Of a DNA stretch of 64,000 nucleotides, positions 42,403 through 42,539 are shown in pieces; position 1 is the stretch's first letter, and each line of letters opens with the position of its first letter. The DNA lies in NCBI GenBank assembly GCA_951406725.2, contig OX597839.1, positions 3,038,001 to 3,102,000 of the forward strand, read 5' to 3'. Below the pieces are notes generated by a model, which made no database searches, was not told the DNA's origin, and saw nothing but the letters and a program-made list of their open reading frames with translations. A program made the position numbers and the translations under genes. This stretch comes from Octopus vulgaris. Its lineage: Eukaryota.

Positions 42403-42539
42403 TGCGAACAGAAGCGAACTACAGCCAACTCTAGCAGACGAGGTGTCCAGCACTGAAGAAGGGAAGAAATAGCCCGAAACCAGGCTGGTCTACTGGTCTC
42501 GTCGCCAGAAGGTGGTAGGGGTTCGCTCCCCTGCTCGTA
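42403..42539 (+). ncRNA. Type I hammerhead ribozyme capping a ~50-bp imperfect rod (extended stem I)
   Basis: CCAGCA-CUGAAGA-A-GGG(AAGAAAUAG)CCC-GAAAC-CAGGCUG-GUC^UACUGG. Distal pairs GACGAG/CUCGUC, GCGAAC/GUUCGC and UGCGAACAG/CUGCUCGUA. Confidence 0.87.

Follow-up and report, generated by a model that had tools for sequence, protein, structure and literature searches.

An old, interrupted copy of a 359-nt hammerhead retrozyme in Octopus vulgaris, probably placed in microsatellite DNA by a Penelope-like enzyme

The window analyzed here is a 64-kb stretch of Octopus vulgaris DNA (contig OX597839.1, positions 3,038,001 to 3,102,000). It contains a GC-rich island at 42403–42539, which an earlier note, made from the letters of the window, described as a 137-nt rod-shaped RNA capped by a complete hammerhead. 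We consider it likely that the island belongs to an old, interrupted and probably silent copy of a non-LTR retrozyme, likely placed in microsatellites by a Penelope-like enzyme. The locus itself is a fossil, and its useful parts are those it shares with its family: the insertion signature, the predicted promoter and a LINE that targets the repeat.

Layout of the split copy and its hammerhead

The copy lies in two parts at 41853–42655. Its features are listed below, with the cleavage site taken as position 0 of the 359-nt unit.

41853–41929 (+): retrozyme copy, 5′ part; unit positions 192–271, 84% identical to the family consensus and colinear with the downstream part
41895–41900 (+): promoter-like motif (predicted PSE), as in U2 snRNA upstream regions; putative function
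41945–42272: unrelated multi-copy repeat with inverted arm, direct arm and tail, inserted in the element's internal TA run
42273–42403: (TA)65 microsatellite at the junction, including what is left, in expanded form, of the element's own TA run
42393–42655 (+): retrozyme copy, main part; unit positions 263 to about 165, 87% identical to the consensus
42426–42439 (+): fixed target site of an L1/Tx1-like LINE (as in other copies), here empty and mutated
42427 (+): predicted transcription start, placed from the LINE junction
42437–42503 (+): type I hammerhead, stem I extended and with an internal loop; its strands at 42447–42452/42491–42496, with a C.A mismatch at pair 2
42453–42490 (+): catalytic core CUGAAGA (with an extra A), stem II, A-rich loop, GAAA, stem III and GUC, read from the sequence
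42654–42719: (ATGT)16 microsatellite at the 3′ end of the copy, as for many family copies

The island was indeed GC-rich, with 56% GC against 34% for the 64-kb window, and the 137-mer folded into a rod of −54.6 kcal/mol (z −3.16), with 1 of 200 shuffled sequences folding as well. Its proposed boundaries did not hold. Similarity continued on both sides as a 359-nt repeat, which is the true unit in place of a minimal mobile unit of 137 nt, and the basal stem of the rod uses TA bases. Nor does the rod start at the end of a separate (TA)n tract: that tract belongs to the interior of the element, where it has expanded and been interrupted, and the element's own short TA run also pairs into the base of the rod. 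Because the two-armed repeat and the (TA)65 both lie within this run, what looked like an island after a TA run is an interrupted element. The insertion that split the copy came later than the copy itself. The main part consists of the hammerhead-capped rod followed by short hairpins, and its 3′ end is near end A, a fixed 3′ end of the family described below.

The two-armed repeat at 41945–42272 gave 2609 first-look candidates and 87 matches from the 40 that were scored, and its two-arm layout in TA runs recurred among 11 other loci that were read. It is probably another Penelope-mobilised family. No hammerhead core was seen within it. Elsewhere in the window we noted a 941-aa open frame with APE endonuclease and RT at 29865–32690 (+), which is an intact-looking LINE ORF; a mariner transposase fragment at 19607–19954 (+; Pfam HTH_48, E 4e-20); and a repeat family with a tandem period of 184 bp, direct and inverted, at 10021–10430, 44197–44424, 50615–50963 and 52918–53391.

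The motif positions of the hammerhead were all confirmed: CUGAAGA at 42453–42459, an extra A at 42460, GGG/CCC at 42461–42463/42473–42475 and GAAA at 42476–42479, followed by stem III, ACCA/UGGU with a GGC loop, and GUC at 42488–42490. In the hammerhead position numbering that we take to apply to this copy (A9, C17), C17 is 42490 and the predicted cleavage is between 42490 and 42491. When tested against the core pattern CUGANGA...GAAA...UH, every core position was intact, with one extra A after A9. Stem I carries a mismatch (C42451.A42492), and stem II has 3 bp with a 9-nt loop where relatives have 4 bp, the fourth pair being lost in this copy (A42464.G42472). In the minimum-energy fold of the 137-mer, stems I and III were not in the hammerhead register; the fold in that register lay 9.6 kcal/mol above the minimum, using an energy model that ignores tertiary contacts. 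The description of a rod capped by a complete hammerhead is thus right for the core and fails for the stems, of which I and III are predicted to misfold and two carry mismatches.

A search of Rfam returned no hammerhead match at the gathering score or at E ≤ 10, only simple-repeat noise, so that the identification rests on the motif, the family and covariation. The UG internal loop in stem I and the AAAUA loop II, which may form a tertiary contact, are conserved across subfamilies, and presumably resemble the loops of the Schistosoma hammerhead. Natural hammerheads at low Mg2+ depend on tertiary contacts, according to the available part of PMC6155905. Since the energy model leaves such contacts out, this copy may still cleave itself slowly. 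Its standing as the best candidate for an active monomeric ribozyme is weak, as it ranks 17th of 24 core-intact copies by predicted cost of the active fold. There is only one hammerhead at this locus, and therefore no circle can be excised from it; in the available part of a 2026 preprint, a locus counts as active if it holds at least two consecutive complete hammerheads, and the window copy has one.

Motifs of the form CUGANGA...GAAA numbered 10 in the 64-kb window, compared to 1.9 expected. More CUGANGA...CGAAA motifs were seen at 2356–2385 (−), 2631–2672 (−), 11328–11354 (+), 43829–43877 (−) and 55591–55632 (+), and are possibly minimal hammerheads of the type found in Penelope-like elements (PLEs).

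The 359-nt family, its decay and its expression

The genome searched is 2.8 Gb long and rich in microsatellites. A 24-base motif, allowing up to 3 mismatches, gave 774 matches (404 + 370), and the reversed control gave 0; with at least 774 matches, some of them in tandem, the sequence is not single-copy. A DNA search produced 862 candidates, 40 of which were scored, and the full-length matches were 83–90% identical. The nearest sampled relatives of the window copy were 85–90% identical to it, and none exceeded 90%.

Locus L020 carries two units with a period of 359 nt, and copies start at many positions of the same circle. In L020 and in L027, two hammerhead regions follow each other as a direct tandem. 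Of 126 segments, 24 were longer than a single unit, the longest being 805 nt; family copies are mostly dispersed and old, comprising 0.3–2.2 units. An older subfamily, with a 353-nt unit and 929 candidates, is roughly 20% apart from the main one and has the same two 3′ ends. The consensus units have GC contents of 47% (359 nt) and 46% (353 nt), with longest stop-free frames of 72 and 82 aa, and were strongly folded as circles (z −9.9 and −8.6, respectively). As a circle, the 359-nt consensus was 69% paired (z relative to 60 shuffles): the rod forms a single long arm, and the opposite end folds into short hairpins. We looked for a second hammerhead core on the minus strand of the unit and found none, and no terminal repeats were seen in family copies apart from partial tandems.

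The 359-nt repeat is a new family of a known kind, the non-LTR retrozymes: it is a multi-copy unit of 150–450 bp with a type I hammerhead, less than 50% GC and no ORF. The idea of a type I hammerhead within a retrozyme-like mobile unit was therefore borne out, at the level of a multi-copy and structurally conserved family. A third, more distant hammerhead repeat family was seen at L167, L171, L173, L174, L176, L177 and L180, with the same LINE at the same site.

At the family level, the three hammerhead stems, with stem I open, are backed by covariation. Across 50 aligned copies, 84.5% of the cells expected to pair did so, compared to 24–38% in slid structures. Two-sided changes were found at stem I pairs 2, 3 and 6 and at stem III pair 4; these counts represent about four subfamily-level events and are not independent, and pairs changed on both sides were no more numerous than in shuffles (54/500).

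The core was intact in 24 of the 50 copies, and only three (L005, L009 and L027) combined an intact core with stems free of mismatches. In the consensus hammerheads, the active fold lay 3.2–3.7 kcal/mol above the minimum-energy fold. Departures from the majority amounted to 12/220 in the core versus 76/1140 elsewhere in the main subfamily, and to 14/220 versus 150/1140 in the older one. Segments of at least 150 nt had a median identity to the consensus of 87% and a maximum of 93.3%, the best pairwise identity among 801 pairs was 88.4%, and no young subfamily was found among the sampled copies (40 scored of 862 candidates, and 40 of 929). The hammerhead was selected in source elements and is decaying in dispersed copies.

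It is highly improbable that the locus is an active mobile unit in its own right, self-cleaving and with a minimal length of 137 nt. Its core is intact, its rod is stable, the extra A after A9 occurs in related copies too, and some cutting in vitro is possible, given that energy models ignore tertiary contacts. Such a unit is nevertheless at odds with the real unit length, with the two stem mismatches and the cost of the active fold, with a single hammerhead and a split promoter, and with the lack of any sampled relative above 90% identity; in addition, the core in the main subfamily decays about as fast as the rest.

Expression was assessed in three RNA-seq runs that came from one organism, not established as the same species as the genome, and whose library type is uncertain. 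A search of sequencing runs listed no RNA run carrying the sequence; six DNA or unclassified runs under five organism codes shared 0.21–0.33 of the query words and were left out of the evidence. In the three RNA-seq runs of 11.5–12.9 million reads, 121, 95 and 69 reads fell on L005. They came from both strands, were mostly less than 90% alike, and 95–97% of them extended into unrelated sequence. No pile of ends and no circle junction appeared at L005 in the three runs; such libraries may lose circles. Two reads that seemed to join 1791 to 1452 of L005 as a circle (X11) were rejected, as they simply follow the unit onward. The trace reads look like old copies inside host transcripts. Published retrozymes yield abundant circRNAs, whereas this family gave trace reads only.

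Insertion ends, candidate helper, predicted promoter and targeting LINE

The ends of 126 segments from 80 loci were analyzed, leaving out 10 duplicate or segmentally duplicated loci; 11 such loci were left out of the analysis of the older subfamily and flanks. The 3′ ends clustered at site A (unit positions 163–176; 43/126) and site B (220–235; 30/126), compared to 8% expected, and none of the 126 was within 10 nt of the cleavage site. The 5′ ends were scattered, with 8 near the cleavage site versus 7.4 expected. A microsatellite followed 43 of the 73 A or B ends, against 13 of the 53 other ends. There were 29 head-to-head pairs: 11 combined A with B, two were A with A, none was B with B, and 16 involved another end. 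The cleavage site was crossed by 73 segments, a number to be read in light of most queries having been selected for copies spanning the hammerhead. We also considered end B as a Pol III terminator and found no support for this, since the main subfamily has T5 there but the older one only T3.

With its microsatellite target, partial tandems, inverted arm and tail at one end, the family carries the insertion signature of PLEs. The window itself has a fragment of a Penelope GIY-YIG endonuclease at 37809–38220 (+), 67% identical to an intact ORF at locus L096. The PLE family found from this fragment had 14,968 candidates. At L096:3787-6608 there is a young Hydra-type PLE with an intact 778-aa ORF and with tandem and inverted copies that are 96–99.5% identical. 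The ORF has DKT and RW (RWK-like) motifs, a C-terminal GIY-YIG, CxxC and CxH but no CCHH, and its target is (TA)n; by these motifs, which PMC8557442 gives for the (TA)n-targeting Hydra clade, the element appears to be of the Hydra-clade type. A Pfam search of the ORF gave no family. In this PLE, both kinds of arm terminate in (TA)n, the direct arms at one site and the inverted arms 152 nt before it; its 3′ region has no canonical hammerhead core. No sequence was shared between the repeat and the PLE loci, and the helper is thus inferred from the end pattern alone. On this pattern, the Hydra-type Penelope enzyme of this genome is the likely helper of the family. There is a mismatch in age, the candidate-helper PLE copies being young and the repeat copies old.

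PLE ends show the same combination of end pattern, inverted arms and targeting of TA runs, and the available part of the 2026 preprint argues that retrozymes derive from the pseudo-LTRs (pLTRs) of PLEs; the repeat might instead be the 3′ end of an autonomous Penelope-like element whose body has been truncated away. We regard this as quite unlikely. Long copies wrap into the next monomer and not into an ORF; no ORF with RT and GIY-YIG was found attached to the repeat, a PLE protein match occurring in 1 of 71 loci and being weak; and the hammerhead is canonical, not of the minimal PLE type. Moreover, when 83 5′ flanks taken from 109 loci were compared, one shared sequence alone was joined to the unit at a constant place, namely the 3′ end of a LINE, at unit position 295.

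This LINE has APE, RT, zf-RVT and ORF1 zinc knuckle domains, with the APE and knuckle scores below the Pfam cut-off; its match in the Atlas was named RVT_1 only. By its domains and its fixed target with duplication, we class it as L1/Tx1-like. Of 25 loci with LINE joints, 24 run on into a hammerhead repeat from the target site, although the query included 56 nt of the repeat, so that 24/25 is not an unbiased rate. Among these 24 repeats, 16 belong to the main or older subfamily, 7 to the third family and 1 to a further variant. Target duplications of 13–17 nt surround the LINE at L158, L182 and L190; at L192 the target occurs to either side of it. Three loci (L182, L190 and L192) carry short LINE copies of about 1.9–3.6 kb, with the same 5′ end and the target duplication; these are probably internally deleted derivatives.

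It could be proposed that the LINE mobilises the repeat, as a 3′ transduction or a SINE-like partner, since its 3′ end joins unit position 295 in many loci. This view is largely refuted and scarcely credible: the repeat is the target of the LINE, as the duplications at L158, L182 and L190 indicate, most copies span position 295 without a LINE, and copies end at fixed sites in microsatellites and not in poly(A).

At 17 of the 25 joints, the upstream half of the target was missing; one had inverted arms there and three were unresolved. The joints without the upstream half, some with inverted arms, suggest that LINE and repeat were likely recopied as one RNA. At L168, a composite of LINE and retrozyme stops at unit position 2, practically on the cleavage site, as would be expected of a cut transcript.

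An RNA running across the cleavage site, as these 17 joints make likely, would also suit spread through uncut linear read-through RNA, with a hammerhead that is slow or serves end processing and with no circle. The crossing of the cleavage site in copies fits uncut linear RNA equally well, the RNA-seq data contained neither circles nor cleavage-site ends, and the active fold of the consensus differs from its minimum-energy fold. We nevertheless think this route quite unlikely. Subfamilies that differ by roughly 20% have all retained the core and the stems, monomer circles have been demonstrated for coral, mussel and axolotl retrozymes (in the available part of PMC7229834), a circle cut from a dimer with the LINE inside yields the same composites, and cDNA libraries may lose circles.

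The LINE site also served as a reference point for a promoter. In 18 of 20 U2 loci, representing three promoter types, a six-base motif was found at −57 to −61; the remaining two loci (L218 and L225) carry, at +1, a LINE 84% identical to the retrozyme-targeting one. Counted from the LINE site, the consensuses of both subfamilies carry the U2-type motif at −59 and a TA run at −33 or −31. No other site of the main unit fits the profile as well as this motif (13.9 vs. 9.2); in the older subfamily, its score of 7.5 is exceeded by that of one overlapping site on the minus strand (7.9). The motif was absent, as read by eye, from the 100 nt upstream of 20 U6 loci, which had no common promoter motif. 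A U6 copy at L206:1407-1607 directly follows a retrozyme-like stretch ending near site A, and retrozyme-like sequence also lies downstream of it. The motif arrangement suggests an internal snRNA-type promoter in the repeat, in which the element's own TA run, at about −33, would be the TATA box; in the window, its remnant lies within 42273–42403. The window copy has its motif at −532, compared to −59 in intact units: the later insertion has split the predicted promoter, and the copy is therefore probably silent. Copies include the region upstream of the predicted start, which would require a read-through or circular template.

In the retrozyme reading that we favor, the snRNA-type internal promoter (PSE-like motif at −59, TA run at −33) would transcribe tandem units, and the hammerheads of successive units would release the 359-nt monomer, whose ends would then be joined by ligation to give a circle. 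Next, (TA)n DNA would be nicked by the RT/GIY-YIG protein of a Hydra-type Penelope element, and reverse transcription would be primed at either of two fixed sites, some 170 and 228 nt beyond the cleavage site. Copying would proceed through the cleavage junction and the promoter and stop at random, which sets the 5′ end, and it would often produce two arms; the inserted copies would afterwards decay neutrally. The L1/Tx1-like LINE would be a parasite of the family, with the predicted start site as its point of insertion.

More tentatively, the elements could be arranged in three tiers: a Penelope enzyme, a retrozyme circle with its own snRNA-type promoter, and a LINE that captures this promoter and is then re-spread as cargo. 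It is conceivable, at somewhat less than even chances, that Penelope primes at the two fixed sites while the LINE occupies the start site in at least three retrozyme families, and equally tentative that the Penelope machinery re-spreads the LINE as retrozyme cargo.

Comparison with known systems

Statements about published systems refer to the available parts of the sources cited. For animal retrozymes, the enzyme that helps them, the places where it primes and the promoter are still being sought. The present family is of modest importance here, offering priming sites at fixed positions, an ORF as candidate helper, a predicted promoter and three natural copies whose ribozymes are intact. In the open-licence literature, we found no report of a retrozyme in this animal group, nor of a LINE targeting one, nor of such an insertion signature or promoter.

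Mussel retrozymes, with units of 350–390 bp (PMC7229834, Cervera and de la Pena 2020), agree in size with the 359-nt unit. Metazoan non-LTR retrozymes, as described in the available part of that paper, resemble the present family in their canonical type I hammerhead, non-coding units of 150–450 bp, GC content below 50%, tandem arrangement, highly self-paired circular fold and co-existing PLEs. In contrast to them, the copies here are mostly dispersed and old, with 0.3–2.2 units. Two fixed 3′ ends, head-to-head arms and a U2-like promoter motif set the family apart from what that part of PMC7229834 describes. Its Discussion, in the part available, only names PLEs as a strong candidate helper of animal retrozymes, and the corresponding part of the 2026 preprint derives retrozymes from PLEs (pLTRs), with which the Penelope-type helper proposed for the repeat agrees.

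The family shares (TA)n targets, partial tandems, an inverted 5′-truncated arm and a one-end tail with Hydra-clade PLEs (Craig et al. 2021, PMC8557442, in the available part), but differs from them in that it lacks an ORF and in that no sequence similarity to the PLE of this genome could be detected. The tail is about 58 nt in the repeat and 152 nt in the L096 PLE, compared to 30–40 bp in the same part of PMC8557442.

Newt satellite 2 is a hammerhead repeat that uses an snRNA-type promoter (Coats et al. 1994, as cited in the available part of PMC2220036). It is similar to the present repeat in size, in its hammerhead and in its internal snRNA-type promoter, which is predicted here; as far as that source describes it, the repeat differs in that its predicted promoter includes, at −33, a TA run. 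In this repeat, stem III consists of 4 bp, whereas the amphibian helix III is weak in the account available.

Tx1-clade LINEs target U2 genes and transposons (PMC4494074, in the available part). The LINE described here is like Keno (U2), Tx1 (Tx1D) and Tx1-Mar of that account in carrying APE, RT, zf-RVT and an ORF1 zinc knuckle and in inserting, with duplication of the target, at a single fixed position within a multi-copy element, and unlike them in that its target is a hammerhead retrozyme.
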